A stretch of 64,000 nucleotides of DNA, from the IMG/VR virus record IMGVR_UViG_3300000976_000008, positions 175,223 to 239,222 of that record. One strand, given 5' to 3'. This DNA is from a virus. Lineage: Duplodnaviria > Heunggongvirae > Uroviricota > Caudoviricetes. Under the pieces are notes generated by a model. It saw only the letters and a list, made by a program, of their open reading frames with translations. It was not told where the DNA came from and searched no databases. This document shows positions 10,887 to 27,805 of the stretch, in pieces. Made by a program: the position numbers and the translations under genes. Numbering within the stretch: the stretch's first letter is position 1; every line of letters begins with the position of its first letter.

Positions 10887-10890
10887 GGCT

Positions 10891-13998: not shown

Positions 13999-14433
13999 CT
14001 AGCAGGGAGTGAAGCCTGGTGAATGGGTCTCGTCACCCGAAACAGGCTCGTCTTCTGGACGACCGTCCTCACCGATGCGGAACACCTTGCTTCGATAGAC
14101 TCCGAGCGGCGTTTCCAACTCGATGTCCTGAAGAGTAACCGACAGATTCGGGTCGAGGAATACGGTACTCTGCTTGTCGGCAGAACCGGGATCGTCGTTC
14201 TCAAAAAAGCATAGGAACGATAGAATCAGTTCGTCCTCTTCTTCTCCGTACCAACAGATCTTGAAGACCTGAGGCGTCACGAGCCGGAAGCGGTTGCCAG
14301 CTTCGTTGATCTCAACGATCTCTTGCTGTTCGAGATCGCGGGCATCTGGGGTTGCGTCTTCTCCCAGAATACCCCAATGGCCCCATCCAAGACGTCGGAG
14401 GTATCGGACAAGGCGTTCTTGATTCGGGTTCAT
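13999..14433 (-). CDS. Cassette hypothetical protein
   Basis: AGGA RBS. Confidence 0.8.
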   Translation of the reverse strand: MNPNQERLVRYLRRLGWGHWGILGEDATPDARDLEQQEIVEINEAGNRFRLVTPQVFKICWYGEEEDELILSFLCFFENDDPGSADKQSTVFLDPNLSVTLQDIELETPLGVYRSKVFRIGEDGRPEDEPVSGDETHSPGFTPC

Positions 14434-14500
14434 GGTAGGTTCCTAAAAATGAGTGAGGGGATCGTCTACCCACGTGTTGCGAGCAGAGATCCCCCGTTAA

Positions 14501-14835
14501 ACAAGGCGGTTGAGTTCACGACTGGTGCCGTATTTCTTTCGTCTTCCGAGAGCTTTTTCCGGACGAAGAATCTTTTCCGCAGTCCCTGAGGATCTGGGTG
14601 GGATGGCCGATAGCGAATCGCTTCCAGTCCCCAATTCTTCGTTCTGGTGGCAGTTCCGTCTCCGATAGAGTGACCGTTAGCTGCGTGAAAGTCTAGGCTC
14701 TTGTTTCCTCAATCAGGCCAGGTCAAGCCTAGCGGTGGTAGTAACTCATCGTTTGTCTCCCTGCTAGAATGTGAACGGCGGAGCAAAAATCGTGAATCGC
14801 GGACGTCTAAAAAAGGAACAGCGTTAGCTCTTCAT
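14501..14835 (-). pseudogene. Cassette without an intact ORF
   Basis: ATG after RBS stops after 3 codons (MKS*); bounded by repeats. Confidence 0.4.
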
Positions 14836-14932
14836 CGTGATCTCCCTGAAACTTGGAATTGTCTTCTCTTGACTGTTGCGAGGACGGGATGGCGGTTAAT
14901 TCCGCCACCCCAAATCCCCAGGGTGTTGAGTC

Positions 14933-15154
14933 CTAGCTGTCGCTGTCGACTTCTTCGGCAGGAGCGTTGGCGGCGGCGATCAAGTTGCCAGCTTCCTTCT
15001 CATCCACCTTCGCACCAGCGGCGACGATCTTGGCTCCCAATGAACGGATTTCCATCCCGACGAGAGTTCGTGCCTCATTTTCGGTGCAATTGGTCTGAGC
15101 CATGATTGCTTTGACGAGAGACTGAGTGAGGGCGGCGAGTTGCTTCTTGTTCAT
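14933..15154 (-). CDS. Cassette protein, MNKKQL family copy 2
   Basis: Paralogy. Confidence 0.9.
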   Translation of the reverse strand: MNKKQLAALTQSLVKAIMAQTNCTENEARTLVGMEIRSLGAKIVAAGAKVDEKEAGNLIAAANAPAEEVDSDS

Positions 15155-15272
15155 CGTGTCATGTTCCTGAAAGTGGGTTGAGTTGTGTGTGCGATTTCCG
15201 GCTTGGAAATCGGGAGGGGAATCGTCTCCCCTCCCTTCTGTGTTGCGAGCCAGCATGGCCCGTTAATTCCGA

Positions 15273-15488
15273 CTAGTTGGCGTCAGCTTCGGCAGGAGCG
15301 TTGGCAGTGGCGATCAGCTTGGTGGCTTCGTCTTCGGTCACCTTCGCACCAGCGGCGACGATCTTGGCACCAAATGAACGGATTTCCATACCAACCAGAG
15401 TCCGAGCTTCGTTCTCGGTGCAGTTGGTCTGAGCCATGATTGCTTTGACGAGAGACTGAGTCAGAGCAGCGAGTTGTTTCTTGTTCAT
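15273..15488 (-). CDS. Cassette protein, MNKKQL family copy 3
   Basis: Paralogy. Confidence 0.9.
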   Translation of the reverse strand: MNKKQLAALTQSLVKAIMAQTNCTENEARTLVGMEIRSFGAKIVAAGAKVTEDEATKLIATANAPAEADAN

Positions 15489-15580
15489 CGTGTCACGTGT
15501 TCCTGAAAAGGGGGTTTGATTTTGGGACCGAATTGTCCCGTCTTCTCTTTAGTGTTGCGAGCCGAAATGGCCCGTTAACT

Positions 15581-15841
15581 TCAAGCAGCGGCCACCAACC
15601 GAAAACCGATCGGAGCAGCCAGGTTGATCGCACTGAGCGACCGTGCAGTTTTAGGGCAGCAAACAACCTCTGTGTCGCTAACCCCAAAAATCGCCGAATA
15701 AACGGAAAAATCCCCGCAATCCGCACGAACAGCATTCCTCAAGTAAACCGTAGCCTCTTTGACGCACTCGCAGCGTTCCGTATTCGTGAACGTCTTGGAG
15801 TGAAAACGACCGTAAGCAATGAAGCTGATTTCGAGGACCAT
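15581..15841 (-). CDS. Cassette hypothetical protein
   Basis: Fills inter-repeat interval. Confidence 0.7.
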   Translation of the reverse strand: MVLEISFIAYGRFHSKTFTNTERCECVKEATVYLRNAVRADCGDFSVYSAIFGVSDTEVVCCPKTARSLSAINLAAPIGFRLVAAA

Positions 15842-15910
15842 TGTCTCAATCCTGAGTTGGGGGGAAGCGTCTGCCCTTCTGTTGCGAAGAGCAGACCCCC
15901 GTTAACTCGA

Positions 15911-16279
15911 CTAATCCCAGGAAACGACCAACTCACGCCAGCGAGTTCGAGCCAACACGTCCGGATCGTTCATCGTGTCTTTGGGAACGACTCGATACGT
16001 GACTCCCTCACGAGAGAGCCATTCGAGAATCTCGCCATGAACCGAAATCGGCTTCGCAGCATCCTCTTCGTCGATCTTCCCAAGCGAGACAGATCGGGCA
16101 CCCTCTGAAGATGCCGCAACGGCCATCAGGTTAAGGACACGTTCCTGTTCCCGCTCAAAAGCCGGTTGAATCAGAAGAGTCTGCTTCTCGATATCCGCTT
16201 CCTGTGCGGCTTCGATCCGGTCACGAGCAGTCTTTGACAGCACTCGAAGTCGATCGGCAAGAAGGTCTTTGTCAGCCAT
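15911..16279 (-). CDS. Cassette hypothetical protein
   Basis: CAGGA RBS. Confidence 0.8.
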   Translation of the reverse strand: MADKDLLADRLRVLSKTARDRIEAAQEADIEKQTLLIQPAFEREQERVLNLMAVAASSEGARSVSLGKIDEEDAAKPISVHGEILEWLSREGVTYRVVPKDTMNDPDVLARTRWRELVVSWD

Positions 16280-16350
16280 GTCTCTGTTCCTGAAAAAGGG
16301 GAAGAAGCGTCTGCCCTTCTGTTGCGAGCTGCAGACGCCCGTTAACTCGA

Positions 16351-16581
16351 CTAATCAGCATCCACGTTCAGCAACCGAACAGAATCAAGAGTCTGGATCT
16401 CCATCTCCCTGAAAAAGAGATTGGAAGCGTCGCAATCGTCTTCTGAAGTCGGACCTTGACCATCGCAATCGTTATCGACACGCATCTGTTGCCGAATCTC
16501 CGGGCTAATCTCGCCTTCGATCACTGCGGCGAACGTGTCAGCAGACTTGCCATCGTATTTGGTGATTAGGGTAACCAGCAT
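16351..16581 (-). CDS. Cassette hypothetical protein
   Basis: AAGGAG RBS. Confidence 0.8.
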   Translation of the reverse strand: MLVTLITKYDGKSADTFAAVIEGEISPEIRQQMRVDNDCDGQGPTSEDDCDASNLFFREMEIQTLDSVRLLNVDAD

Positions 16582-16638
16582 TCTCTGTCTCCTTAGAAGG
16601 GAATCGTCTGCCCTTCTGTTGCGAGCTACAGACGCCCG

Positions 16639-16791
16639 TTAATCCTCGATCTTCGACATGAGGAACTCGCGAACCTCATCCTCATCGAAGCCCTTCGGCA
16701 TCGCCGTAGCGATGTAGGTCTCGACCTGGTGCGAATCCTCTGGTGGGAATCCACCCGTCCACCGTTTGAAATCACGCAAAATCGAGTCCAT
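16639..16791 (-). CDS. 50-aa cassette protein (below ORF-track cutoff)
   Basis: MDSILRDFKRWTGG...; TAATG coupling; stop in GTTAA box. Confidence 0.7.
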   Translation of the reverse strand: MDSILRDFKRWTGGFPPEDSHQVETYIATAMPKGFDEDEVREFLMSKIED

Positions 16792-17066
16792 TAGCTCACT
16801 TTCTTATCTCGAAACTCGACAAACTCGACGAACTCCTGCAGATCCCTCTCAAGATCCATCAGATCGCCATCAGTGTACGCTGTATCATCATCGATAAGCA
16901 GTAAATCGATCTCAGACTCGTTCGAGATCCTAGCTCGCTCACCAATCCTACGGACAATCCCCGCCAACTCCTCTGGCGTGCCATCCAGCTTCTCAATCTC
17001 CGAATCTGGGAAATCCCAGTAAATCGTGTCGTTCGATTCGATGCTGATGATCATGGATCGCCTCAT
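16791..17066 (-). CDS. Cassette hypothetical protein (acidic)
   Basis: ORF; start may be 17054. Confidence 0.75.
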   Translation of the reverse strand: MRRSMIISIESNDTIYWDFPDSEIEKLDGTPEELAGIVRRIGERARISNESEIDLLLIDDDTAYTDGDLMDLERDLQEFVEFVEFRDKKVS

Positions 17067-17118
17067 TGGGGGAATCGTCTGCCCCTCTGTTGCGAAGGGC
17101 AGACACCCGTTAACCCGA

Positions 17119-17316
17119 CTACTCTGTCAGGAACCTGTACGTCGTCTCAGTGATCGGCTCCGAACGCCAATCACAACCAATAATGATCCCGCGTTCACGG
17201 CACTCGGCCATCACGATCTCTTCCTCGCTCCAAGTATCCGGAACAATCACCGGCATCCTCACAACGCCATTTCGCATCATCGCGGTAATCACAACGTGTC
17301 GGTCTCGTTCTCGCAT
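17119..17316 (-). CDS. Cassette hypothetical protein
   Basis: AGGAG RBS, MRERD. Confidence 0.75.
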   Translation of the reverse strand: MRERDRHVVITAMMRNGVVRMPVIVPDTWSEEEIVMAECRERGIIIGCDWRSEPITETTYRFLTE

Positions 17317-17921
17317 CACTCGCTCCTGTTGGGGGAATCGTCTACCCCTCTGTTGCGAAGGACAGACGCCCACTCTTCAAAACCCTCTTCGAAGTTGTCG
17401 AAATCGAGAAAGAGTTCGTCGAGCGTCATATCGACCATAGTGACTGACTTGCAGGGTTTCCCCTCGTCGTCTCCATAGTCGACTTGTGTAGTGAACCAGT
17501 CCCACGTCACGACCTGGTCTTTGGTTTCTAGCCACTTAGCTTTGAACAACCGACAAAAGTCCACAGTAGTCACATACCACTTGTCTCGACAGTTCCAATC
17601 GTTCAAATGGATGAGTATCTTGTCCACGTTCGTCTCCTGTTGGGGGAATCGTCTACCCCTCTGTTGCGAAGGACAGACGCCCAGCCTCTCCCAGAACGAA
17701 GTCGGTCGTTTCTTCAAATCTGACCAGATCTCGGCATTCACTCGACGAGCAATCGACTCAAAGATCGGACCGAAAACCATCGCCGCGTCCCACTTCAAAG
17801 AATCCGCCTTCTCTTTAGCGATCGCCAGACGAGACTCGAACTCCTCATCGCCCAGGCGTTCCCGATCGTCCGCTTCTCGCTGTTCGGCTTCACTCTTCGA
17901 CTCAATCGTCCATTCTGCCAT
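17316..17921 (-). CDS. Two cassette ORFs fused through truncated repeats (second start GTG 17627)
   Basis: Frame crosses repeats at 17662 and 17351. Confidence 0.7.
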   Translation of the reverse strand: MAEWTIESKSEAEQREADDRERLGDEEFESRLAIAKEKADSLKWDAAMVFGPIFESIARRVNAEIWSDLKKRPTSFWERLGVCPSQQRGRRFPQQETNVDKILIHLNDWNCRDKWYVTTVDFCRLFKAKWLETKDQVVTWDWFTTQVDYGDDEGKPCKSVTMVDMTLDELFLDFDNFEEGFEEWASVLRNRGVDDSPNRSE

Positions 17922-17997
17922 CGTTTCGTCTCCTGCGGGTTGGGGAATCGTCTGCCCCTCTGTTGCGAGCAAACCTCCAACGTTAACCCAACACCAC

Positions 17998-18046
17998 AGA
18001 CTTCTCAAGACTTCTCAAGACTTCTCAAGACTTCTCAAGACTTCTC
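17998..18046. repeat. 10-bp tandem repeat (AGACTTCTCA)x~5
   Basis: Direct reading; lies between divergent motif copies. Confidence 0.9.
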
Positions 18047-18050
18047 CGAA

Positions 18051-18076
18051 TTAACGGACGATTCTCAACCGCAACA
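18051..18076 (+). promoter_or_regulatory. Inverted copy of the core motif preceding a plus-strand gene
   Basis: TTAAC-N13-CCGCAACA, 38 bp upstream of ATG 18114. Confidence 0.8.
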
Positions 18077-18113
18077 GGAAAGCATCGAGATTCCCAAGAA
18101 CACGGAGAAAACG

Positions 18114-18311
18114 ATGAAAACGATCAACGTCACCCGCAAACAATACGACAACCTCGTCACCAGCGGCCAAATCCCACCAGAACCCCTCTGGCGATCCTTC
18201 CTTCGAAACTGGCACATTGGCGGAGTCCGAGTCACCGGAACCACCGACCAAATGCAAGATCTCCAAAAACGCCTAGTCAAAGGAAACCTCATCGCCAACG
18301 GCCAGAACTAA
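18114..18311 (+). CDS. Plus-strand cassette hypothetical protein
   Basis: GGAG RBS, own motif copy, downstream hairpin. Confidence 0.8.
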   Translation: MKTINVTRKQYDNLVTSGQIPPEPLWRSFLRNWHIGGVRVTGTTDQMQDLQKRLVKGNLIANGQN

Positions 18312-18315
18312 AAAG

Positions 18316-18349
18316 GGGTGGTCTCAGAAACCCCTCACCGAGACCACCC
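18316..18349. terminator. Hairpin between convergent genes
   Basis: GGGTGGTCTC / GAGACCACCC. Confidence 0.6.
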
Positions 18350-18364
18350 AAGCTAGTCGCCCAC

Positions 18365-19111
18365 CTAGCTGACCGACCAACGGTCCGCATCAGAAGCACC
18401 CTCCAAGAACTCAGGAGCATCCAACAAAACCGAACGAGTCTCAGCAGCATCAGGCCACCGCACCCCGTAATTCCTCGCACAAACCTTCCCACAACCCGCA
18501 ATCTTCGACTGCACCTGCGTCAAACGAGCCGGGCAATAACAGCACTTCCCCGAAGCTCTCCCAATCTCACTAATCACCCGAGACGGATCAACCGCCACCC
18601 GACGCAACAACGCCTCCACCTTCACATCATAATTCCGCCGACAATCCCACTCATCCCCATTGATGTAACCATAGAAGATCCCACCAAACGAAGGTGAATC
18701 CGACACGCTCAGGGATTTCTTCCGAGTCCAGCGAAGACAAACCGTCACCCCACCCGCCTCAAGCGTAATCGACGGACGCTGCAAAAACTTCGCCGCATTC
18801 GCCACATGATCAGTAATCGCCTGAAACCCCTGGCGAACACTCCCCCGATTTCCTGCTTGGAAACGATCCGGATGATCATGCTTCGCCACATAAAACGCAG
18901 CCCAAGTCTCATGGGACCTCTTCCACCCACCAAACCGCTCATAACCATCAACCAACCGCAACGCATGAGGACCAGAAACCCTCCCAGAAGAAGTCAACTC
19001 CTTCAACCGCCCAAAAAGAGCAGGCTTGTTCGGATGATTGCTGACGAAAGTCACTTTGCCCAAACGACTCGAAACAGTGAACTCATTCTTAGCCGGTGCT
19101 GCAACAGTCAT
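18365..19111 (-). CDS. Protein with C-terminal DUF6011-like zinc-binding motif
   Basis: GKCCYCPARLT...SKIAGCGKVCA. Confidence 0.7.
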   Translation of the reverse strand: MTVAAPAKNEFTVSSRLGKVTFVSNHPNKPALFGRLKELTSSGRVSGPHALRLVDGYERFGGWKRSHETWAAFYVAKHDHPDRFQAGNRGSVRQGFQAITDHVANAAKFLQRPSITLEAGGVTVCLRWTRKKSLSVSDSPSFGGIFYGYINGDEWDCRRNYDVKVEALLRRVAVDPSRVISEIGRASGKCCYCPARLTQVQSKIAGCGKVCARNYGVRWPDAAETRSVLLDAPEFLEGASDADRWSVS

Positions 19112-19223
19112 ACGCTCGATTTCCTGCTTGGAAAAAGGATTGGGGGAATTGTACCCTATTGTTGCAGAGGAATACTCCCCGTTAAATGCACCCCACACGC
19201 CCGATTTCCTGCCTAGAAATCTC

Positions 19224-19478
19224 TCAACCCTCGCTGGGAATATAACTATGCTCCGTGAAATAATAAACCTTAGCAAGAACACCCATCTTCTCGCAAAGAG
19301 AAATTATCCGGTCACACGTTTCCCCAACCCCCTCAGAGAAACCAATACCAAACTCGACTCGGACAATAAACTCCCTATTAGTAGTTGATCCCTCAATAAC
19401 ACTCTGAACCCTCACATTCATCATATTACACAACATCAACTCAATAGCGAGTTTGATAGTCTTATCATCAGCCATCAC
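19224..19478 (-). CDS. Hypothetical protein
   Basis: ORF. Confidence 0.7.
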   Translation of the reverse strand: MMADDKTIKLAIELMLCNMMNVRVQSVIEGSTTNREFIVRVEFGIGFSEGVGETCDRIISLCEKMGVLAKVYYFTEHSYIPSEG

Positions 19479-19559
19479 GCCCGATTTCCCACCTGGAAAT
19501 AAGAGAAGGGGCAGCGTTAACAGTGATCCCCATCACCCGCTGCCCCTCGCAGGAACACA

Positions 19560-20201
19560 CTACTTTTTCTCAAAAACCCGGACCACGTAGTCAGTCACCA
19601 CACCACGCTCGCCCTTCACACCACCATGCGAATCCTCTTCCAACGTCGTGAACCGCTCAACCCCATCAGGCAAGAAATCCAACGTCGATTGAACCCCCTG
19701 CTGATAACCAAACGCCACATCATGAGTCTCAAACCGCTTCTCCAACGCCAACCTCGCAGGCGGATCAGGCAATTCATCCACCAAATCAGCCCACATCTCC
19801 TGCTCAGCCTCCTCAACGCAACTCGAATTCAAACCATGAGTCTGATCCGCCACATCATGCAACCGAGATGCCGCCAACCGACAAAACCGATCCGTCAAAC
19901 GAGGACTATCCGGCTCAATCGAACCCTCCATCACAGCACCAAGATCACCCGCAATCGTCTTCCGAGAAACCGTGGACACCACAAACAACTCATCCGGATC
20001 AAGCCGATTAGACTGAGCTTCCATTGAATCCTCCGAAAACGTAACCCGATCCCATTTACCATCCTCAGTGCTCCACCGCCAAGCCTCCCTAAAACCAGCA
20101 GCCAACACATACCTCTTCTCAGGGAAATAATCCCACTTATTACCAGACACACCAACAGCCCACCGCTGATCAGCAAACTCTTGAAGAGGAGGTCCCGACA
20201 T
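19560..20201 (-). CDS. Cassette hypothetical protein
   Basis: Trimmed start after repeat. Confidence 0.75.
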   Translation of the reverse strand: MSGPPLQEFADQRWAVGVSGNKWDYFPEKRYVLAAGFREAWRWSTEDGKWDRVTFSEDSMEAQSNRLDPDELFVVSTVSRKTIAGDLGAVMEGSIEPDSPRLTDRFCRLAASRLHDVADQTHGLNSSCVEEAEQEMWADLVDELPDPPARLALEKRFETHDVAFGYQQGVQSTLDFLPDGVERFTTLEEDSHGGVKGERGVVTDYVVRVFEKK

Positions 20202-20269
20202 AATCACTGTTCCTGAAAGAATTGGGGAATTGTCTACCAAACTATTGCAAAACAAATGACCCCGTTAAA

Positions 20270-20569
20270 TCAAGCCCCATGATTCCCAGGCAGCAATACA
20301 AGATCCAACTTCAAATCCGTCACCACAGTCCGCTCCTGAACAATCGAACAAGTCGAAAGCCGATGCCCAAAAACCGAACAATCCTCCGGCGACACCAAGG
20401 AATCCCCCGAAAAAGCCTCAAACACCGTCACACCCCCATCCGACTCAAGATGAACATCAATCAAATCGAACAAACCACGCAACGAAAACGCCGTCAACTC
20501 CCCATCCGAATCCCCAATCGTCTCACCAAAATGATCGACCAAAGAAAAAGACTCAACAGTCCTCGACAT
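20270..20569 (-). CDS. Cassette hypothetical protein
   Basis: Trimmed start MSRTV. Confidence 0.7.
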   Translation of the reverse strand: MSRTVESFSLVDHFGETIGDSDGELTAFSLRGLFDLIDVHLESDGGVTVFEAFSGDSLVSPEDCSVFGHRLSTCSIVQERTVVTDLKLDLVLLPGNHGA

Positions 20570-20630
20570 CACTAGGCTCCAACAAAGGGGAATTCTACCA
20601 AACTGTTGCAAAACAAATGACCCCGTTAAA

Positions 20631-20816
20631 TCACTGATTCCCCCTCGCCCAAACCTCCGCAGACTTCACACACTCCGCCAACGAACCATCCTTCGGAGCA
20701 GAAAACGACTTCAACTCCACAGGCACCAACATCCCAGGCTCCGACACAGTAACCATCTCCAAAGCCGGAACAACAGTCACAGTCAACCGACCAACCTTCT
20801 GCGAACCAGGAACCAT
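20631..20816 (-). CDS. Cassette hypothetical protein
   Basis: GGAG RBS. Confidence 0.65.
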   Translation of the reverse strand: MVPGSQKVGRLTVTVVPALEMVTVSEPGMLVPVELKSFSAPKDGSLAECVKSAEVWARGNQ

Positions 20817-20892
20817 CACACCACTCCAAGGAGACCAAAGGGGAATTCTACCCCACTGTTGCAAGGGAATAACCCCCAATTAAATCAAACCC

Positions 20893-21105
20893 TCACGGCT
20901 TCCAAAAAGCCCCAAACCCATCATCCCGATTCGCAGAAAGCAACTCACAAACCCGCTTCCTCAAACCACGATCAGCCGCAGCCAAAGCCTCCGACCTCAA
21001 CTCCTTCCCCTCCAAACCCTCACCAATCAACCGCAATTCCTCAATCTCAACAATCTTCCGATGAGCATCACGAACACCCTGCTCAAAAAACGACATAGCA
21101 TCCAT
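20893..21105 (-). CDS. Hypothetical protein
   Basis: ORF. Confidence 0.65.
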   Translation of the reverse strand: MDAMSFFEQGVRDAHRKIVEIEELRLIGEGLEGKELRSEALAAADRGLRKRVCELLSANRDDGFGAFWKP

Positions 21106-21141
21106 AACACGATTTCCCACTTAGAAACAAAGAAACAGGAA

Positions 21142-21444
21142 TTACTCCCGCTCAACACCCTCCCGCACCTGAACACCATCCGAACCCAACCGAGGAATCA
21201 AATGACCCCCCGACGACTCCAAGTAATGCAAACCAGTCCCATAATCAACCCGAAGCGACAACCCCGACCGACCAACAACCGGATCAGTAGCATCCTTCGC
21301 CACATCCAAAAAATAATGACCAATACCCCACCCAAGCATGAAAAGCACCGACCAAAACACATCCCTGCGAAACTCCCGATAAACCTCCACCACCAACCCT
21401 CCAAACAAAAGAAAAAAGAAACCGGGTACTAGAGGCGGTGTCAC
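21142..21444 (-). CDS. Membrane protein with DUF6440-like motif
   Basis: Hydrophobic segments then VDYGTGLHYL...GGHLIPRLGSDG. Confidence 0.65.
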   Translation of the reverse strand: MTPPLVPGFFFLLFGGLVVEVYREFRRDVFWSVLFMLGWGIGHYFLDVAKDATDPVVGRSGLSLRVDYGTGLHYLESSGGHLIPRLGSDGVQVREGVERE

Positions 21445-21453
21445 CCTTAAACC

Positions 21454-21703
21454 GGGCGTCCTGAAGGAGAGTTACCTCCAACAATCGTCAATTCGCTACC
21501 TCGTTCCCGACACCTACAAACCACGACCCTGATGGTGGAGCAGCTCCATTCTCACCGGGACGACCCTGGGATTACCGAATCCACACACCGCCACAGGCTT
21601 AACATGAGAATACCAACTTGACAATCTCTCACCGCAAGGCCCATCGGAGTCAGCCCCAAAGCTCAATCTCGCCAGCAGTCCAGTCACCCAGAACTACGCC
21701 CCC
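21454..21703 (-). ncRNA. Candidate structured ncRNA
   Basis: No convincing ORF; follows motif copy 21725-21751; 5' GGGCGT pairs with 3' ACGCCC. Confidence 0.4.
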
Positions 21704-21801
21704 ACCAAAATCGTGATAACCAACTGTTGCCACCCAATACCCACCCGTTAAACCCACGCATTTCCCGCCTGGAAATAACCAGGATACATCAAATCGCAAT
21801 A

Positions 21802-22128
21802 TCAGTCTCTTTTAGTTGACAAGCACTCATCTATGTCCTCAAGAACAACAGCACCCTTAGTCATCACACACAACGAATCCCCAAAATCCGTCACACCAGT
21901 CACCTGAAAATCACCATCACAATGAAACAACCTCCCCTCATTCGCAGGAGCCCACAAAGGAGTCCTAACACTATCCCAAACCACCACAACCGGCACCGAA
22001 GACGGAACAAGACCCCTCACAACCCACCAACCAGTAGCCACCCAAAAATGACGCGAATGAACCGAATTCCTCGAAATTAACGAAAACAACTCCCCACGAT
22101 CCAACAAATCACTCCAAGACGCACTCAC
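21802..22128 (-). CDS. Hypothetical protein
   Basis: GTG start after RBS hairpin. Confidence 0.65.
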   Translation of the reverse strand: MSASWSDLLDRGELFSLISRNSVHSRHFWVATGWWVVRGLVPSSVPVVVVWDSVRTPLWAPANEGRLFHCDGDFQVTGVTDFGDSLCVMTKGAVVLEDIDECLSTKRD

Positions 22129-22239
22129 ATTTCCCCCCTGGAAAACCCGCACCAAAAACACACACCAACATATTACACACAAACCCACCCAGTTAAATCC
22201 ACGCACCCCAAGAACCCCCGCATTTCCAACAAGGAAACC

Positions 22240-22428
22240 AAAAACACCCAAAAATAGGAATAATCCCCCACAGAGCCACCAAGAGAAGCCCAGAAACATA
22301 CCCCTCTCCGAGGCTCTCCTTTGCCTTCCCTGAGCCTCTAACTTTCACGCGGCCCAGAGTCCGTGGGAGGGCCTTCTTGCCCTTCCCTTGCGGCACGGGT
22401 TTTTCTTTGGCTATTTTTGGGATATTGT
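22240..22428. other. Strand-skew flip 2, candidate replication origin
   Basis: Abrupt C/A-rich to G/T-rich switch; hairpin 22310-22338. Confidence 0.5.
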
Positions 22429-22737
22429 TTATGGTTTGGACTTTTTGGGCGTGGTTACGTTTTGTGCTGGGGTTATTGTTTTGGGTGGTTTTTCATTGGT
22501 TTGGTTTTCGTTGGTCTTTTTTGCGTAGGCTCGTACGCTTCCCCAGATTGTGGCGGTTAGTGGTGTCATTGTTGAGTGGCATTTTCGGGGTCTTGCCCAT
22601 GTTGTTTTGTTTGTTGTGTAGTCTTCTAGGCATTCTGTGTGGTGGTGTGGGATTGGTTGGCCTTCTGGGATGATTGTCCATCCTTGTGGTGTTTTTGGGA
22701 GTGGTTTTCCTTGGCTGGTTTGGTTGTAGTTGTTCAT
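22429..22737 (-). CDS. Hypothetical protein
   Basis: ORF, ATGA coupling. Confidence 0.7.
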   Translation of the reverse strand: MNNYNQTSQGKPLPKTPQGWTIIPEGQPIPHHHTECLEDYTTNKTTWARPRKCHSTMTPLTATIWGSVRAYAKKTNENQTNEKPPKTITPAQNVTTPKKSKP

Positions 22738-23060
22738 ATTTTGGTTTTTATCCAGTTGCTTATTTGTTGGGGGTAGTTTGGGTTGTTTAGGTCGAATGTT
22801 TGTTCGTGGTATTGTGGGTTGTCGATTTCTTTGGGGTTGGTTTGTTGGGGGTTTTTGGGTGTGCTGATGATTATTTTTATTATTGGTTTGGCTTTTGTGG
22901 TGAGTGCTGCTATTTTGGCGATTAGGTGGTGGTTTTTTGGGTTGTAGATGGTCCAGTTTTTGGTTGTTTGGTTTGTTGTTAGTTGTAGTGGGGCGAGGTC
23001 TTTTGTTAGTTGTTGGTGGGTTAGGTGGATTATTGCTTTTTCTAGGGTTGTTTTGTGCAT
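22734..23060 (-). CDS. Family B small protein
   Basis: FDLNNPNYPQQISNWI. Confidence 0.8.
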   Translation of the reverse strand: MHKTTLEKAIIHLTHQQLTKDLAPLQLTTNQTTKNWTIYNPKNHHLIAKIAALTTKAKPIIKIIISTPKNPQQTNPKEIDNPQYHEQTFDLNNPNYPQQISNWIKTKI

Positions 23061-23296
23061 TGGGTGATTATTCTTATTGTTGTGTCGAGGGTGGGGTCGC
23101 CGCCGAAGATGAGGATTATTTTGTGGTTGGTGTTTTGGTGGGTGAGGGTTGTGTGTTCGGTGTCGATGATTATTAGTGTGTCTGTGTCGGTGTTGGGGGT
23201 TATTTCTATTGGTGTGAGGGTGGCGTGCCAGTGGGTGATTTGTTTTTGGTTGTTGGTTGTGGTGTAGGGGCTTTTTGTGAGTTGGTAGATTCGCAT
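23042..23296 (-). CDS. Family A small protein
   Basis: MRIYQL..W..EITPNT..TLTH. Confidence 0.85.
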   Translation of the reverse strand: MRIYQLTKSPYTTTNNQKQITHWHATLTPIEITPNTDTDTLIIIDTEHTTLTHQNTNHKIILIFGGDPTLDTTIRIITQCTKQP

Positions 23297-23532
23297 TTTG
23301 GTTGGCGGTTTTTGGTGATGATTCTTATTATGCCGGGTTTTGGGTTGAGGATTTTTATTATTTTGTAGTCTTTTTCTTGGTGGGTGAGGGTTTGGTGGTG
23401 GGTGAGGATTACTATTGTGTTGGGGTTTGTTGTTGGTGTGATGTCTGGTGTGAGTTTGAGTTGCCAGTAGTAGACGAGTTGGTGGCCTTGGATGGTGGCG
23501 ACGGGTTGGCTGTGGAGTTGGTGGATTTGCAT
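23206..23532 (-). CDS. Family A small protein
   Basis: W..DITPTT..TLTHQEKDYKI. Confidence 0.8.
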   Translation of the reverse strand: MQIHQLHSQPVATIQGHQLVYYWQLKLTPDITPTTNPNTIVILTHHQTLTHQEKDYKIIKILNPKPGIIRIITKNRQPKCESTNSQKAPTPQPTTKNKSPTGTPPSHQ

Positions 23533-23780
23533 GTTCTTGTGGTGAAGATGTTGATTTGGTTGTTGCGGACTCTGTGTGGGGAGTGGTAGTAGATTTTGTA
23601 GTCTTTGTCTTGGTAGGTGAGGGTTTGTTGGTTTATGAGGATTATTGTTTCGGGGTCGGTTTGTGGGGTTATTTCTATTTCTTTGAGGGTCCAGAAGTAG
23701 GCTTCGTTGGTGGGGGAGTTTGGGGTGGTGTTTTTGTAGTGGGTTGGGTAGGGTGGTCGTTTGAATTGGTAGATTCGCAT
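23412..23780 (-). CDS. Family A small protein
   Basis: Trimmed start MRIYQF; EITPQT..LTYQDKDYKI. Confidence 0.8.
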   Translation of the reverse strand: MRIYQFKRPPYPTHYKNTTPNSPTNEAYFWTLKEIEITPQTDPETIILINQQTLTYQDKDYKIYYHSPHRVRNNQINIFTTRTCKSTNSTANPSPPSKATNSSTTGNSNSHQTSHQQQTPTQ

Positions 23781-24010
23781 TTTGGTCTTTGGTGGGTGTA
23801 GATGGAGAGGCGGTTGGGGACTCCGTCTATGAAGTTGATTATTTTGTAGTCTTTTCCGTTGTTGGTGAGGGTTGTTTGTTCGTTGTTGATGAGGATTATT
23901 GTCGCTGGGTCGGTGGTGGGGGTTATGTCGAGTTTGAGTTGGGCGGTCCAGAAGAAGTAGGCGTGTTTTCTGCCTGGGGTTGGTGGTTTTCGGAGTTGGT
24001 AGATTTCCAT
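23675..24010 (-). CDS. Family A small protein
   Basis: MEIYQL..DITPTT..KDYKI. Confidence 0.8.
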   Translation of the reverse strand: MEIYQLRKPPTPGRKHAYFFWTAQLKLDITPTTDPATIILINNEQTTLTNNGKDYKIINFIDGVPNRLSIYTHQRPKCESTNSNDHPTQPTTKTPPQTPPPTKPTSGPSKK

Positions 24011-24258
24011 AATGGTGTGCGGGCTGTGAGGATTTTGATTGCGTTGCTGCGGGATGCGAGGAATTTGTGGACTCGGTAATCTTTGTCTTGGTGTGTGAGG
24101 ATTGTTCCGTCTTCACTTAGAAGGATGATGTTTGTTAGATCTGTTTCTGGGGTTATTTCTGGGGCTGGTGTGATGATCCAGACGAGGGCGTTTTTGTTGC
24201 CGGTTCCGAACCAGGCTGTTTTCTGGGGGACTTGGTTGAGTTGGTAGAGTTGGTTCAT
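23923..24258 (-). CDS. Family A small protein
   Basis: EITPET..LTHQDKDYRV. Confidence 0.8.
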   Translation of the reverse strand: MNQLYQLNQVPQKTAWFGTGNKNALVWIITPAPEITPETDLTNIILLSEDGTILTHQDKDYRVHKFLASRSNAIKILTARTPLWKSTNSENHQPQAENTPTSSGPPNSNST

Positions 24259-24488
24259 TTGCCGTAGTGTTCGTTGATTCCACCAATGAAGAATTGGTGG
24301 AATCCGATGAGTCCGAGGATGCCCATTGTTGTTCGGAGGAATATGGCGAGTCCTCGTGTTGGTTCGCCGTTTAGCCAGAAGAGACTGAGCAGGAATATGA
24401 GGATTATTGTTCCTGCTGTTATGAGGTAGTTTTTAGTGCTGGCTTTGAGGGGTTTTCTTTTCTTGTTTTTCATGGGGGTTTGTTGCAA
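24255..24488 (-). CDS. Small membrane protein (2 TM)
   Basis: Hydrophobic segments; start probably MKNKK. Confidence 0.7.
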   Translation of the reverse strand: MQQTPMKNKKRKPLKASTKNYLITAGTIILIFLLSLFWLNGEPTRGLAIFLRTTMGILGLIGFHQFFIGGINEHYGK

Positions 24489-24504
24489 GGGAATTATTGT
24501 TTGT

Positions 24505-24747
24505 TTATTTGGTGGTGTAGACGGCTAGTTGGCGGTGTTTGTTGTTTGGGAGTCTTCTGGTTTTGAAGATTTTGTAGTCTTCTTCTTTGTATGTGAGGAT
24601 GTTCTGGTTGCTGTTTATGATGACGATGTCGTTTGGGTCTGTTTCTGGGGTTATTTCTGCGTTTTGGAGGTCCCAGCGGGCGACTTCTGGGTCTTTTGGG
24701 TCTCTTGAGGCTGTGTGGAGTTTTTCTATTAGTTTGTAGAGTTTCAT
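24505..24747 (-). CDS. Family A small protein
   Basis: RWDL..EITPET..LTYKEEDYKI. Confidence 0.85.
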   Translation of the reverse strand: MKLYKLIEKLHTASRDPKDPEVARWDLQNAEITPETDPNDIVIINSNQNILTYKEEDYKIFKTRRLPNNKHRQLAVYTTK

Positions 24748-24977
24748 GGGAATGTATAGGCTGTTGGGCGTTGGCCTTCGACGGTGTTGATGAAGGCTTT
24801 GTAGATTCGGTGATCTTTTTCTTGGTGGGTGAGGGTTGTTTGATCTTCGTCGATGATTATTATTGATGTTGGGTTGGTTTGTGGGGTTATTTCTATTTCT
24901 TTGAAGGTCCAGTGGATGAGTGTTGGGTAATTGTCTGGGTTGGTTTCGGCGATTTGGATTAGTTCGTAGATCCGCAT
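24744..24977 (-). CDS. Family A small protein
   Basis: EITPQT..LTHQEKD. Confidence 0.85.
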   Translation of the reverse strand: MRIYELIQIAETNPDNYPTLIHWTFKEIEITPQTNPTSIIIIDEDQTTLTHQEKDHRIYKAFINTVEGQRPTAYTFP

Positions 24978-25492
24978 TGTTCGTGGATTCTTTGGCTGAT
25001 TTGTTGGGGGAATTGGGGGTCGTTGATGTCGTAGGTGGTTAGGTTGTTTTCTACGAGAACTGTTGCTGGAAGGTTTTCGTCTTGGCGTCGGATGAGTAGG
25101 GCGATTGGGGTACTGTGTTTTTTGATGATTGAGATTGTTATTAGGTAGTCTTCTGTTTGGCCGACGATTTTGTCTTTACTTGGGGATTGGGGGATTATTG
25201 TCCATTCGGCGATGGGGTTGTTGCGTATCAGATGGACGTGGATGAGTTGGAGGGCTGCTCGGATGGCGTCCATTGGTTTCGATCGTGTGTAGAAGACGGG
25301 TTGTTGGTTGATTGGATCTTTTTGGTTTTCTGTTATGTGGTATTCTTCGTCTTGGTGTGTGAGGATTGAGCCGTTGATGAGGACGATTTGTTCTAGGTCA
25401 GTGTCAGGGGTTATTTCTATTTCGTCTGTGACGTCCCAGCGGATTCTGCCTGGTCGAATCTGGTTTACGGTTGTGATTTTGTAGAGTTGCAT
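24959..25492 (-). CDS. Family A-family B fusion protein
   Basis: N-terminal EITPDT..LTH; C-terminal YDINDPQFPQQI. Confidence 0.8.
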   Translation of the reverse strand: MQLYKITTVNQIRPGRIRWDVTDEIEITPDTDLEQIVLINGSILTHQDEEYHITENQKDPINQQPVFYTRSKPMDAIRAALQLIHVHLIRNNPIAEWTIIPQSPSKDKIVGQTEDYLITISIIKKHSTPIALLIRRQDENLPATVLVENNLTTYDINDPQFPQQISQRIHEQCGSTN

Positions 25493-25734
25493 GGATGGGT
25501 GTAGGCAGATTCTGATTGTCTTGAAGTGTAGAAAAGAGTCCGGTTTCTTGTGTAGGCTAGTTCGTAGTCTTTACCTTCGTGGCTGAGTATTCTTTTGGAG
25601 TTGATGATAACGATGTTTTTTGGGTCGGTGTCTGGGGTTATTTCTATCTCTGCTAGTTCCCAACGAATCAATGGTTCATTAGTGCTTGGCCATGATGTGT
25701 GAATAGTTTCTATGAGTTGGTAGACTTCTATCAT
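25465..25734 (-). CDS. Family A small protein
   Basis: RWEL.EIEITPDT. Confidence 0.85.
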   Translation of the reverse strand: MIEVYQLIETIHTSWPSTNEPLIRWELAEIEITPDTDPKNIVIINSKRILSHEGKDYELAYTRNRTLFYTSRQSESAYTHPCNSTKSQP

Positions 25735-26015
25735 CCGAGGACTGCTTTTATTTGTTTAGTCACTTGTTCGGGGAATGTTGGGTCGGTGATTGGGTAGTTG
25801 GTGATGCTGTCGTGGTGGAGTTCATTTGGATTGTACTTGACGATGTAGAGGGTGATTTCTCCGTCTTTGGTGGTGAGGCTGAAACTTCCTGTTTCGGTGG
25901 TTCCGCTTATTCTGGCGGAACTGTGGCCTAATTGTGAGTAGTCTAGGGTTTTGGGATTGTTATCTGTTTTGATTTGGTAGAAGACGAGTTCGGATGCTGC
26001 TCGTGTTGGTGTCAT
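25731..26015 (-). CDS. Family B small protein
   Basis: YPITDPTFPEQV. Confidence 0.85.
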   Translation of the reverse strand: MTPTRAASELVFYQIKTDNNPKTLDYSQLGHSSARISGTTETGSFSLTTKDGEITLYIVKYNPNELHHDSITNYPITDPTFPEQVTKQIKAVLG

Positions 26016-26356
26016 ACGCCTGTGACTTTTTTGATTTCTTGGGCGATATATTGGGGGAATTGTTGGTCGGCGATTTCGTAGTTGCTTATTTGGTCTCGTT
26101 CTGGCCAGTTGTTTTCTGGTTGATCAAAGAAGACGATGTAGAGGGTGAGACAGCTGGTGGCACTGTAGGTTGTTATTGTTATGTCGCAATTGGTGATGGT
26201 GCCTTTAATGACTGTTGGGTAGTGTCCGAATATTCCCGGATATTGCTGTTCGAGATGTTCGAAGGCCATTTCTAGTGCTGCGTCTAGTGCTGTCATCGCT
26301 GGTTGCAAAGCTCTTTGTGCTGCTTGCGTCGTAGTCATTTCTTGATCACGAGCCAT
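26012..26356 (-). CDS. Family B small protein
   Basis: YEIADQQFPQYI. Confidence 0.8.
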   Translation of the reverse strand: MARDQEMTTTQAAQRALQPAMTALDAALEMAFEHLEQQYPGIFGHYPTVIKGTITNCDITITTYSATSCLTLYIVFFDQPENNWPERDQISNYEIADQQFPQYIAQEIKKVTGV

Positions 26357-26622
26357 TTGTTACCTTCCACTTCGATCCATTTTGATGGTACTGCGTTTGT
26401 AATAATCATTTGGGTTTGCTCTTGTGCTTCTGGTGTTGTATTGCGGGAAGCGTAGCGTCTTCTTATTGCGTAGTCTTCGCCTTTGTAAGTGAGTGCACTA
26501 TTCGTAGCAATGACTAGTTCGTCTGATTCTGTGTCAGGCGTTATTTCAGGATCTACAGCGAGTTTCCATGTTCTTTCATTGTATACACTGTCTGAGAATT
26601 GGATTAGTTTGAAGATTCGCAT
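26335..26622 (-). CDS. Family A small protein
   Basis: WKL..EITPDT..LTYKGEDY. Confidence 0.85.
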   Translation of the reverse strand: MRIFKLIQFSDSVYNERTWKLAVDPEITPDTESDELVIATNSALTYKGEDYAIRRRYASRNTTPEAQEQTQMIITNAVPSKWIEVEGNKWLVIKK

Positions 26623-26683
26623 GTGTGCGGCTCTGTGTAAATGATCGGGAATTGAGAATCTAAATTTTTCAACTAGTTCGAGA

Positions 26684-27004
26684 TTATCCGGCTAGGCTGT
26701 CGATTTTCTCTGCGACTTGTTCGTGGAAGTCTGGGTCGGCGATCTTGAAGTGGTATTTGGTGTGGACAGCGTTGCTATTGAAGATGAAGATTGTTATTGT
26801 ATCAGATGTACGCTGTTGGATATTGAAGCTGAATCGAGTGAGTGGATTGTCGAGATTTGCTGATCCGTAGATTGTTAGTTCGTGCTCGTTGATGCTGGTA
26901 GGCGAACCATGTTTAATCCTTTTACGCAGTTCTCGCATAGTCAGTTCAATAACTGCTTTCTCAGTGGGAGTTGGATCTGATTCGTCGTCAAAGCTAACGC
27001 TCAT
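26684..27004 (-). CDS. Family B small protein
   Basis: FKIADPDFHEQV. Confidence 0.85.
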   Translation of the reverse strand: MSVSFDDESDPTPTEKAVIELTMRELRKRIKHGSPTSINEHELTIYGSANLDNPLTRFSFNIQQRTSDTITIFIFNSNAVHTKYHFKIADPDFHEQVAEKIDSLAG

Positions 27005-27021
27005 GGAGCTTTCTAACTGCC

Positions 27022-27360
27022 TTAAAGATCTGCTGGGGGAATTCTGGGTTGTTGATGTCGAAATTGTTTCCTCACTAAGAGTTCTTGCTTCTCTAAGAGT
27101 CGCCGTTGACTCATAGCGTTGTTATTCTCATGTTCAGTGATGAAAAAACAGTGGCTTGGTATTGAATGCTCGGTCGGTGTGCTAGTTATATAATCGTAAG
27201 TGATCCCTTGATAAGTAAGAGTCTCATTTTCTATGTCGATGAGAATCAATAATTCTGTTGGTGTGTCAGGATTTTCGATTCCATTCGAGGTCGTGTGCCA
27301 GAGCGTTGATGTTCCTCCGTCTGTTCGTTGAATTCTTTCTAGAATTTGCGGGGTTATCAT
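27022..27360 (-). CDS. Family A small protein (family B remnant in another frame at 3' end)
   Basis: GIENPDT..LTYQG; off-frame FDINNPEFPQQI. Confidence 0.75.
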   Translation of the reverse strand: MITPQILERIQRTDGGTSTLWHTTSNGIENPDTPTELLILIDIENETLTYQGITYDYITSTPTEHSIPSHCFFITEHENNNAMSQRRLLEKQELLVRKQFRHQQPRIPPADL

Positions 27361-27752
27361 GGTTGTTCTAGTCTGTCACATTTTTCGCGTTCTCGTCCGA
27401 TTTCTTCTTCGAGTTGTGCGATAATCTGTTCTGGGAACTCAGGATCTGCTATACAAAAGATCTTTGGTATATCCTCAATCGCTGGTAGTTGGCCCGGTCC
27501 TGTCAACGTCCAAGAGGGCTTTTCGAATTCGTCAACGTACGTTATTTTGACACCTTCAATCAATAGTCTCTTCTGGATATAAGTGGGAACCTCCGCCGAA
27601 TTGGGATTAATCGCCCAAAGCTCTAGAATATAGTGTTCCGGTGTGACATTATAAACGGAAGGTATCAGGTTCGTACTGCAGATATAACGGTTGTTGAAGT
27701 GCCTATCGATGGCTTGCTTCAAGAGCTTGAGTGCTGCTTCTTCTGCGTTCAT
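27357..27752 (-). CDS. Family B small protein
   Basis: FCIADPEFPEQI. Confidence 0.85.
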   Translation of the reverse strand: MNAEEAALKLLKQAIDRHFNNRYICSTNLIPSVYNVTPEHYILELWAINPNSAEVPTYIQKRLLIEGVKITYVDEFEKPSWTLTGPGQLPAIEDIPKIFCIADPEFPEQIIAQLEEEIGREREKCDRLEQP

Positions 27753-27759
27753 TTAGAAA

Positions 27760-27786
27760 TGTTGCAAAGAGATATATGTGCGTTAA
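27760..27786 (-). promoter_or_regulatory. Core promoter-like motif
   Basis: TGTTGCAA-N14-GTTAA. Confidence 0.6.
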
Positions 27787-27805
27787 TTAGAGTTGTAGAA
27801 AATCC

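Follow-up and report, generated by a model that had tools for sequence, protein, structure and literature searches.

Two abrupt strand-composition flips located on conserved non-coding elements in a 408-kb uncultured phage genome

Genes and strand composition around the two flips

The window analyzed here is a stretch of 64,000 nt from the 408-kb genome of an uncultured phage. It contains an array of ~33 hairpin-repeat gene cassettes on the minus strand (8428..20886), with a GC content of 50-55% against ~42% in the rest of the genome. This 14-kb array is bracketed by two points of abrupt compositional change with the same polarity, flip 1 at 8.08 kb and flip 2 at 22.35 kb. In the left arm of flip 1 (4400..7762, minus strand), which includes three family A paralogs, the minus strand is G+T-rich, and in its right arm (8201..13000, plus strand) the plus strand is G+T-rich, more weakly than at flip 2. 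The left arm of flip 2 (18000..22299, minus strand) has a G+T-rich minus (coding) strand and proteins rich in G/V/W/F/L; it also carries decayed copies of the array hairpin repeat and a conserved 305-aa ORF (18365-19282), whose protein start is more likely 19111 according to the ortholog alignment. In the right arm of flip 2 (22401..27800, plus strand) the plus strand is G+T-rich, and minus-strand family A/B paralogs are recoded to A+C, with proteins rich in T/P/N/K/Q/H. The real genes flanking flip 2 are all on the minus strand, on both sides. The genes hit by the bias are orphan phage ORFs of 75-300 aa, none of which matches a Pfam family.

Across flip 2, the plus-strand GC skew changes from -0.47 (21.0-21.5 kb) to +0.69 (23.0-23.5 kb) and the AT skew from +0.42 to -0.60 (the same 500-bp bins). 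In 50-bp bins, the keto skew is -0.52 to -0.72 at 22151-22300, ~0 at 22301-22400 and +0.64 to +0.76 at 22401-22500, which confines the switch point to 22301-22400. The bias peaks at codon position 3, where coding-strand A+C is 0.03-0.14 on the left and 0.91-0.98 on the right. Fourfold sites on the coding (minus) strand pass from 92% G+T left of 22.35 kb (A 0.05, C 0.03, G 0.45, T 0.47) to 92% A+C right of it (A 0.45, C 0.47, G 0.02, T 0.06). The purine fraction stays at 0.48-0.50 across the flip, and both classes of twofold sites shift (C/(C+T) from 0.12 to 0.96, A/(A+G) from 0.08 to 0.95). The bias at flip 2 is therefore a pure A>G and C>T bias on the strand running 5' to 3' outward from the center.

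The proteins follow the same switch. Residues G, V, W, F, C and L together make up 48% of the proteins left of flip 2 and 15% right of it, while T, P, N, K, Q and H rise from 16% to 56%, the family A and B paralogs included. The mutational footprint is strong enough to rewrite adjacent proteins. The fade with distance is not a simple exponential: the bias stays near saturation for ~3 kb and then drops along a sigmoid whose midpoint lies at 3.7-4.2 kb for three of the four arms of flips 1 and 2, and background composition is regained 4-5.5 kb from the flip center on each side. In a scan of the whole genome for skew jumps (threshold 0.35, sd 0.089), only two jumps of origin polarity above 0.35 were found, in windows 8078 (0.55) and 22378 (1.05), and no abrupt jump of opposite polarity was detected. 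Between the two flips the skew changes sign gradually, as between converging forks.

Much of this had been anticipated in an earlier note on this DNA, made from the sequence alone. The coordinates and direction that it gave for the plus-strand reversal at ~22.35 kb are correct in both 500-bp and 50-bp bins, and the same-strand protein shift that it described, paralogs of families A and B included, is borne out by the residue classes above. The whole-genome skew count that it asked for gave two sites in 408 kb, in agreement with its view of two flips of equal polarity bracketing the array ~14 kb apart. Its distance-decaying bias holds as a fade over several kb, but not as simple exponential decay, given the plateau and sigmoid fall.

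Conserved elements at the flips and their counterparts in a relative

The exact switch point of flip 2 is a non-coding element of neutral composition, E2 (22295..22399, minus strand), which scores 92 bits by nhmmer in both this phage and a relative. In gene direction, the 5' half of E2 occurs nowhere else in the genome, and the 3' half, which resembles a 5'UTR that includes a ribosome-binding site, carries a hairpin, Shine-Dalgarno-like sequences rich in purines and the start codon (ATG) of the downstream ORF. At flip 1 lies E1 (7980..8201, minus strand), with a conserved core, the palindrome GGAATTATTCC and a stem-loop maintained through compensatory changes. A tandem 8-mer (CCCAACTT) in five to six copies (7853..7913, plus strand), which resembles an iteron array and is missing from the relative, adjoins E1. 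E1 has no resemblance to E2, and no initiator site common to the two is evident. Neither center has a sigma-70-type promoter (the one consensus scanned, which may differ from that of the host or of phage middle-mode promoters), DnaA-type features, a match to Rfam families or a clear A+T-rich unwinding element; the core of E2 is rich in G+C, and E1 includes short stretches rich in A+T.

The earlier note had placed a hairpin and a repeated motif at the center of flip 2, and both are present: GAGGCTC and GAGCCTC arms at 22310 and 22332 around a 15-nt loop (22310..22338), and TTGCC(C)TTCCCT at 22321 and 22377 (22321..22388, plus strand), with one more exact copy in the genome 3.5 kb ahead of the window. 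However, the activity probably does not lie in them. The stem of the hairpin is lost in the relative while the loop sequence is kept, the hairpin's fold is no better than that of shuffled sequences (z -0.84 as DNA, -1.95 as RNA), and the half of E2 that bears it recurs elsewhere in the genome without a flip.

The relative, the only one found, comes from another metagenome and has a helicase 68% identical to that of this phage. It keeps both elements with a flip at each, in the same polarity as here: E2 aligns with L001:2675-2778 and E1 with L001:13820-14059 of the relative. Third-position coding-strand A+C in the relative passes from 0.82-0.92 to 0.21-0.30 at E2 and from ~0.6 to 0.01-0.10 at E1; its two arms within the E2-E1 interval are weak. 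The neighborhood of E2 differs, lying upstream of the helicase block in the relative and 31 kb downstream of it here, and the spacing between E1 and E2 is 14.3 kb here and 11.2 kb in the relative. GC3 in the arms moves toward 50-60% from opposite starts, ~40% here and ~85% in the relative, as would follow from a shift of purine sites to G and of pyrimidine sites to T. Each flip sits on a distinct conserved non-coding element that is kept together with its flip in the relative, a finding new to this analysis.

To compare orthologs between the two phages, third-position A+C was calculated at identical amino acids. For the 305-aa gene, which lies downstream of E2 in this phage and upstream of E1 in the relative, the values are 0.13 and 0.66, respectively. 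A second ortholog, 1 kb from E1 in the relative and 7 kb away here, has 0.00 and 0.32, respectively; similarly, a third has 0.25 in the relative, beside E2, and 0.53 here, far from any element. Because orthologs adopt the skew of the nearby element at identical amino acids, amino-acid selection and misassembly are excluded. The bias is mutational, not selective, and it follows the elements, not the genes.

Origin-like sites and the competing explanations

Our best explanation, to which we give about an even chance, is that E2 and E1 act as origin-like sites, which DNA synthesis leaves in both directions and around which it imprints transitions locally; the initiation of DNA synthesis as the anchored process, and the chemical step that mutates, are both what we infer. 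In this phage, which has a T4-like terminase, synthesis would start at the fixed sites E2 and E1 and proceed outward both ways, with mutations arising on one strand over the first few kb. The displaced parental strand might stay single-stranded and deaminate (C>U, A>hypoxanthine), or low-fidelity initiating synthesis might leave G.T wobble mispairs; by both routes, G and T would be enriched on the strand running 5' to 3' outward. Over generations, the footprint would saturate silent sites and then pull amino-acid composition. The observed bias is symmetric, with a G+T content of 92% at fourfold sites of the outward 5' to 3' strand on both sides of E2, though all genes read one way. Bidirectional origins had been proposed in the earlier note; the origin polarity stands, but no sigma-70-type promoter, DnaA-type or Rfam feature was found at the centers. 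By our own derivation, a double-strand break that is resected 5' to 3' and whose 3' tail deaminates would give the opposite polarity.

The flips share with bacterial GC/keto skew and human skew N-domains a G+T-rich strand leaving the site 5' to 3' on both sides and a skew that jumps upward abruptly at the site, changes sign gradually between neighboring sites and is independent of gene direction. The phage sites, which are putative origins, differ in a ~10-fold larger amplitude, in equal A>G and C>T, and in a reach of 4-5.5 kb of 408 kb, so that the skew is lost by 5-5.5 kb and does not persist to a genome-scale terminus. Ordinary origins, to our knowledge, show weak genome-wide skew and not a bias of ~92% that ends after 5 kb, and we know of no extreme skew in T4 itself or at its origins. 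No published description of such flips was found. T4 oriF and oriG (R-loop primed) and oriE are likewise ~100 bp non-coding elements in a phage with this terminase type (minimal origins ~100 bp), with point-primed synthesis that later becomes bidirectional, a reach of only ~2.5 kb without helicase, and sub-genomic nascent DNA that builds up early in infection (PMC3016281); E1 and E2 differ in having no recognized promoter or A+T-rich unwinding element. In the gradient of the vertebrate mitochondrial H-strand, A>G and C>T likewise accumulate on the strand left single-stranded, graded with the distance from the synthesis start, and reshape codon and amino-acid usage (PMC3269012). Here the same two changes are found on one strand, graded with distance from the center, but as a local two-sided footprint in a double-stranded 408-kb genome. 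Spontaneous deamination alone should favor C>T in large excess (PMC3269012), so the near equality of A>G and C>T counts against it as the sole cause.

A mechanism may also be shared with GRINS, which were described in 2021 as regions of >500 bp duplicated at >80% identity within one gene cluster, in assembly-line synthase genes, linked to gene conversion, with mean absolute GC and TA skews >0.15 that are positively correlated (PMC8256042). The intense correlated skews, strongest at codon position 3, and the shifts between Gly/Val/Cys/Trp and Pro/Thr/His/Gln are alike, and the GC skew here reaches 0.69 with a sign-matched TA skew. The phage skew, however, forms mirror arms around one point, and the genes are orphan phage ORFs rather than assembly-line synthase genes under gene conversion. 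A self-BLAST of 4-28 kb against the whole genome returned only matches of 160-270 bp with 76-86% identity, confined to the array interior and absent from the strong arms, far from the duplications of GRINS.

It is unlikely, by comparison with origin-like sites, that E1 and E2 are the edges of a ~14.3-kb long direct terminal repeat carrying early host-takeover cassettes and collapsed to one copy by the assembly. The inner arms would then reflect nick-primed strand-displacement synthesis duplicating the repeat, and the outer arms end-invasion-primed synthesis outward, with which all four arm polarities are compatible by our own derivation. The pairing of two sites of one polarity, each with its own conserved element and separated by 14.3 kb here and by 11.2 kb in the relative, fits such edges around early-type genes, and the block between the flips contains small early-type cassettes, like those of SPO1's 13-kb repeat. 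Jumbo myoviruses are known with long repeats of 22-66 kb (PMC5852040). The Logan contigs inside the array (8.4-17.1 kb) have a depth of 30-33 against 21-23 in the flanks, but the ratio is 1.4-1.5 rather than 2 and could come from repeated k-mers or GC bias, and the part at 18.0-22.35 kb lies in a contig of depth 21. The large terminase best matches gp17-type terminases of T4-like cyanophages and vibriophages, a type with headful packaging without fixed ends, which at ~26% identity argues weakly against a repeat. Moreover, the keto-skew flip is absent at the mapped repeat edges of T5 and SPO1, and at the repeat edge of XacN1 it is weak (about +-0.15) and confounded by divergent genes.

Quite unlikely is the alternative that E1 and E2 are very strong divergent promoters, at which transcription and R-loops expose the non-template strand to deamination, sense in the downstream arm and antisense in the upstream arm. 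Its polarity equals that of an origin, the coding strand is G+T-rich in the downstream arms as transcription-associated mutagenesis predicts, and the 5'UTR-like 3' half of E2 would suit it. However, the arms of E2 are symmetric at 92% each, so antisense transcription would have to match sense in strength and reach over 4-5 kb. The promoter scan described above was negative at both centers, with the same caution about the consensus, and the array interior, although heavily studded with promoters, has little skew. We know of no transcription-linked skew of such size.

Very unlikely, in our estimate, is a programmed mutator: an error-prone polymerase or DNA-modifying enzyme recruited to E1 and E2 to diversify the accessory genes around them, which would be nature's equivalent of the laboratory mutators that are tethered to nicks or polymerases. 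A near-saturating, tightly local bias anchored on specific conserved elements would suit it, as would the affected genes, which are orphan, fast-turning-over paralog families and cassettes without Pfam match. The similar extent of A>G and C>T suits polymerase G.T mispairing better than spontaneous deamination. At the ColE1 origin, the footprint of error-prone Pol I reportedly fades with distance as the initiating polymerase hands over to the replicase. This laboratory analogue likewise has a mutation footprint beginning at the origin (PMC3167613), but it uses an engineered polymerase and is one-directional, while the phage footprint is natural, two-sided and at evolutionary equilibrium. Against a mutator, no candidate enzyme is tied to E1 or E2, the sole deaminase-family match being an ordinary dCMP-deaminase-like gene far off; there is no 5'-neighbor context signature of APOBEC type (TC or CC); and a fixed directional bias lowers sequence diversity, the opposite of a diversifier's job.

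Finally, nothing supports an artifact (misassembly, inversion or sequencing damage) or amino-acid or codon-usage selection, and either is extremely improbable: the DNA is present in one sequencing run only, probably that of the source sample, but 46-kb and 28-kb contigs of a second assembler span both flips with zero differences, so that the refutation foreseen in the earlier note, a junction not spanned by reads, fails; the elements and flips recur in the relative, which comes from a different metagenome; per-gene coding-strand composition is independent of assembly orientation; and the opposite, position-dependent skews of orthologs at identical amino acids, strongest at fourfold sites, dispose of the other refutation foreseen there, amino-acid selection alone.

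Meaning for giant phages

Mutation acting locally can prevail over codon usage as well as amino-acid composition, here taking proteins from 48% G/V/W/F/C/L to 56% T/P/N/K/Q/H within 200 bp, with consequences for homology searches, for models of phage gene birth and decay, and for gene calling, in which stop-poor strands yield long false ORFs. The mechanism can be tested directly, since A>G and C>T shift almost equally and the skew accompanies a 100-base element from one phage to the other. A broader and rather improbable proposal is that giant phages carry small conserved non-coding elements that anchor extreme one-strand transition mutagenesis for ~4-5 kb both ways, as local hypermutation zones. 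If so, their early accessory genes, probably for host takeover or anti-defense, would evolve far faster than the remaining genome, under a natural element-targeted mutator distinct from diversity-generating retroelements. If the flips mark starts of DNA synthesis, the origins (or genome ends) of uncultured giant phages would be readable from sequence alone.

Strand bias around the skew flips

Analysis of the plus strand revealed that, at position 22.35 kb of the window (flip 2), GC skew switches from −0.47 to +0.69 and the AT skew, +0.42 before this point, is −0.60 after it (500-bp bins), a switch that 50-bp bins limit to 22301–22400. Purines make up about 0.49 of the bases to the left and to the right; the asymmetry is thus entirely one of keto (G+T) against amino (A+C) bases, and hence one of transitions. 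Codon periodicity places all genes flanking flip 2 on the minus strand, where they form short, tightly packed ORFs without Pfam families (a search with the proteins of the arms, the biased stretches on each side of a flip, matched none). The bias is strongest at the third codon position, with coding-strand A+C of 0.91–0.98 to the right and 0.03–0.14 to the left. At fourfold sites, the coding-strand frequencies of A, C, G and T are 0.45, 0.47, 0.02 and 0.06 on the right and 0.05, 0.03, 0.45 and 0.47 on the left; at twofold sites, C/(C+T) is 0.12 on the left and 0.96 on the right, and A/(A+G) is 0.08 and 0.95. Codon positions 1 and 2 shift likewise. G, V, W, F, C and L make up 48% of residues on the left and 15% on the right, against 16% and 56% for T, P, N, K, Q and H; the paralogs of family A, an orphan ORF family, exist as G+T-coded, A+C-coded and neutral versions. 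The extreme strand bias centred near 22.35 kb and the accompanying shift of same-strand proteins, family A included, which an earlier note had read from the sequence, are both borne out by these values.

The bias is near saturation for about 3 kb outward, then declines roughly linearly on the log-odds scale and reaches background at 5–5.5 kb; three arms have sigmoid midpoints of 3.7–4.2 kb and the fourth has one of about 2 kb. A left/right skew comparison across the genome, a single contig of 408,349 bp in which the window spans bases 175223–239222, found only two jumps above 0.35 (sd 0.089), at 8078 (flip 1, 0.55) and 22378 (flip 2, 1.05) of the window, both with the polarity of an origin, and no abrupt jump of opposite sign. 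The whole-genome count proposed earlier thus gives two such sites of equal polarity, bracketing the 14-kb array of hairpin-repeat cassettes (8428–20886), inside which the skew changes sign gradually. Decayed array repeats near flip 2 show clear G>A on the plus strand, at 45% of the G positions of the consensus; because these copies align noisily, the substitution spectrum was taken from codon sites. Both contig ends (G000:C1:1–120 and 408250–408349) lie in one 18-nt tandem repeat of a coding region, at which a circle, or a collapsed concatemer, was probably broken in assembly.

At 23042–24258, the four family A copies closest to flip 2 share about 90 nt with one another, versus the usual 4-nt ATGA overlap, and have C-terminal tails that continue into the following gene. 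Stop triplets on the T-poor coding strand are there at half the background density (0.025 vs. 0.046), and the overlapping copies fit an erosion of stop codons through T>C. The ORF starting inside E2, the conserved non-coding element at flip 2, has 165 aa here (21802–22299) versus five codons (MFFAR) in a related phage (L001:2768–2785). Because stop codons are rare on the A-poor strand, much of this 165-aa frame may be no real gene; the plus-strand ORFs right of flip 2 are similar composition artefacts.

Dependence of the bias on position

An assembly artefact is ruled out by contigs crossing both flips and, more tellingly, by the presence of flips in a relative from another metagenome. The search for data sets containing this DNA listed one sequencing run and none of RNA. 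A different assembler, applied to that run, yielded a 28-kb contig (covering 5500–8424) across flip 1 and a 46-kb contig (covering 18017–25000) across flip 2, each with zero differences. The relative, IMGVR_UViG_3300027987_000382 (L001), is a 146.8-kb fragment of about 60% GC with a helicase 68% identical to the one here; synteny with the window covers the helicase, a DUF932-like gene and a conserved 305-aa gene that lies here in the left arm of flip 2. It lacks the 31-kb family A/B block (window 22400–53700 vs. L001:10166–12500) and most array cassettes, and family A was not found in its record. The relative has two skew flips, each on a non-coding stretch aligning with one centre here, namely L001:2675–2778 with E2 (22295–22399, minus strand) and L001:13820–14059 with E1, the element at flip 1 (7980–8201, minus strand). 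Coding-strand third-position A+C changes from 0.82–0.92 to 0.21–0.30 at its E2 and from about 0.6 to 0.01–0.10 at its E1 (fourfold G+T 94–97%). A family B-like gene (ending ...ADPDFPD...) lies directly downstream of its E1 (L001:14118–14411). The gene neighbourhood is conserved for E1 and changed for E2, which in the relative lies upstream of the helicase block, beside homologs of genes at 64–66 kb here that show no skew in this genome.

Orthologs were compared only at codons with an identical amino acid in both phages. Third-position A+C of the 305-aa gene is 0.13 here, 3–4 kb downstream of E2, versus 0.66 in the relative, where the gene is upstream of E1. The value is 0.00 for a gene lying 1 kb downstream of E1 in the relative and 0.32 for its ortholog here, 7 kb from E1; for another gene, lying 1.9 kb downstream of E2 in the relative, it is 0.25 versus 0.53 here, and the helicase values in the two phages are 0.38 and 0.51. 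Since skew depends on position at identical amino acids, amino-acid selection is ruled out and the bias is tied to the elements. Both doubts that the earlier note had attached to the flip, an unspanned junction and amino-acid selection alone, fall with the crossing contigs and these orthologs. The arms also shift GC3 toward 50–60% from opposite sides (about 40% here, about 85% in the relative), as would follow from a drift of purine sites to G and of pyrimidine sites to T; such drift also explains the raised GC between the flips. The earlier observation is confirmed, and extended in that the bias is anchored in the elements and follows the element's position between two phages.

Searches for further relatives with the single 305-aa and 231-aa proteins gave no match in viral contigs, and among cultured phages the 305-aa protein had one weak partial match only (Tunturiibacter phage, 29% identity). 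Homologs of family A, whose alignment is too variable for scanning, were found neither in a set of 5.8 billion proteins nor in cultured phages. E1 and E2 patterns and the 305-aa alignment yielded this one relative only from viral contigs and none from metagenome contigs; a plasmid search gave no match.

Make-up of the two elements

E1 and E2 are dissimilar. The 3' half of E2 (gene direction) contains a hairpin, a purine-rich loop, Shine-Dalgarno-like sequences and a start codon, and is probably a 5'UTR. This is the hairpin that had been noticed at the centre; in the relative its loop sequence is kept and its stem is not, and other places in the genome carry weak copies of this half without having a flip. 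The 5' half occurs once in the genome, and the fold of E2 is unexceptional compared with shuffled sequences. E1 holds a stem-loop preserved by compensatory changes, a conserved core and the palindrome GGAATTATTCC; tandem copies of CCCAACTT, five to six in number, are special to this phage. A strong stem-loop (−31 and −40 kcal/mol) lies at its upstream edge (window 8125–8175; L001:13845–13900), where the stem sequence differs between the phages and the pairing is kept. The loop of this E1 stem-loop reads TGCGTTG or GGTGTT, a GTTAA box comes next, and the two together resemble the hairpin-repeat unit of the array in inverted form. The centres have the short motifs ATwATTCCTAwTT and GGGAAG in common, too few to judge; an Rfam search of both returned sub-threshold chance matches only, and no sigma-70-type promoter was found at E1 or E2.

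A second small hairpin family, TTTCY-N4-8-RGAAATCG, occurs on the minus strand at 15192, 18846, 19117, 19202, 19482 and 21110 of the window, nearly restricted to the E2-proximal part of the array. The relative has 10 copies (L001:2833–3158, 10731–11025 and 12467–12725), four of them directly downstream of E2.

Proposed origin-like starts and their rivals

On both sides of an element, the strand gaining G+T is the one running 5'→3' away from it, as DNA synthesis that begins at the element and moves outward would predict. Our best reading is that E1 and E2 are origin-like starts of such synthesis, and we give it about an even chance. The main rival places E1 and E2 at either edge of a long terminal repeat: the paired sites lie 11–14 kb apart around early-type genes, and nick-primed repeat duplication with end invasion can be derived to yield the polarities of all four arms. 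The array has 1.4–1.5 times the depth of its flanks, which is suggestive of such a repeat (in contigs of the second assembler, word depth is 30–33 in window 8400–17100 vs. 21–23 in long flanking contigs, and the breaks in this range are all at hairpin repeats); however, the excess is not twofold and could be caused by repeated words or GC. The large terminase is of the T4-like gp17 type, which also argues, weakly at about 26% identity, against a terminal repeat, as do the mapped repeat edges of T5 and SPO1, which unlike E1 and E2 carry no flip, and the flip of XacN1, which is weak and confounded.

Divergent transcription from E1 and E2 could expose the strands as well, but it requires antisense transcription as strong and long as sense, and sense transcription by itself would make the coding strand G+T-rich throughout, with no flip. 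A programmed mutator targeting the elements is without a candidate enzyme; an APOBEC-type enzyme is disfavoured by near-equal A>G and C>T and by the 5'-neighbour sequences, in which no APOBEC-like context was found. GRINS, defined by a duplication of >500 bp at >80% identity inside synthase genes (PMC8256042), have the skew phenotype in common with the flips here, but the defining duplication is absent and membership was rejected. A double-strand break resected 5'→3' would give the opposite polarity and was rejected. Literature searches turned up no account of local flips of this kind in phages.

Among replication genes, a Pfam family B DNA polymerase had no match in the genome, nor had gp59, for which the control search was also empty. 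A weak family A polymerase (PolA)-like match in a 450-aa frame (G000:C1:95393–95764) and an ordinary dCMP-deaminase-like gene of 176 aa (G000:C1:133221–133553) were detected, neither linked to E1 or E2.

Under the origin-like reading, synthesis would start at the element and proceed outward, and damage might fall either on the displaced parental strand by ssDNA deamination, to which the mitochondrial H strand is likened (PMC3269012), or on the nascent strand by G.T wobble misincorporation. From the near-equal A>G and C>T without context, we infer that polymerase mispairing fits somewhat better than spontaneous deamination. In T4, origins of about 100 bp are primed by R-loops, about 2.5 kb of leading-strand synthesis is helicase-free and sub-genomic nascent DNA accumulates early (PMC3016281), a scale that matches the present one.
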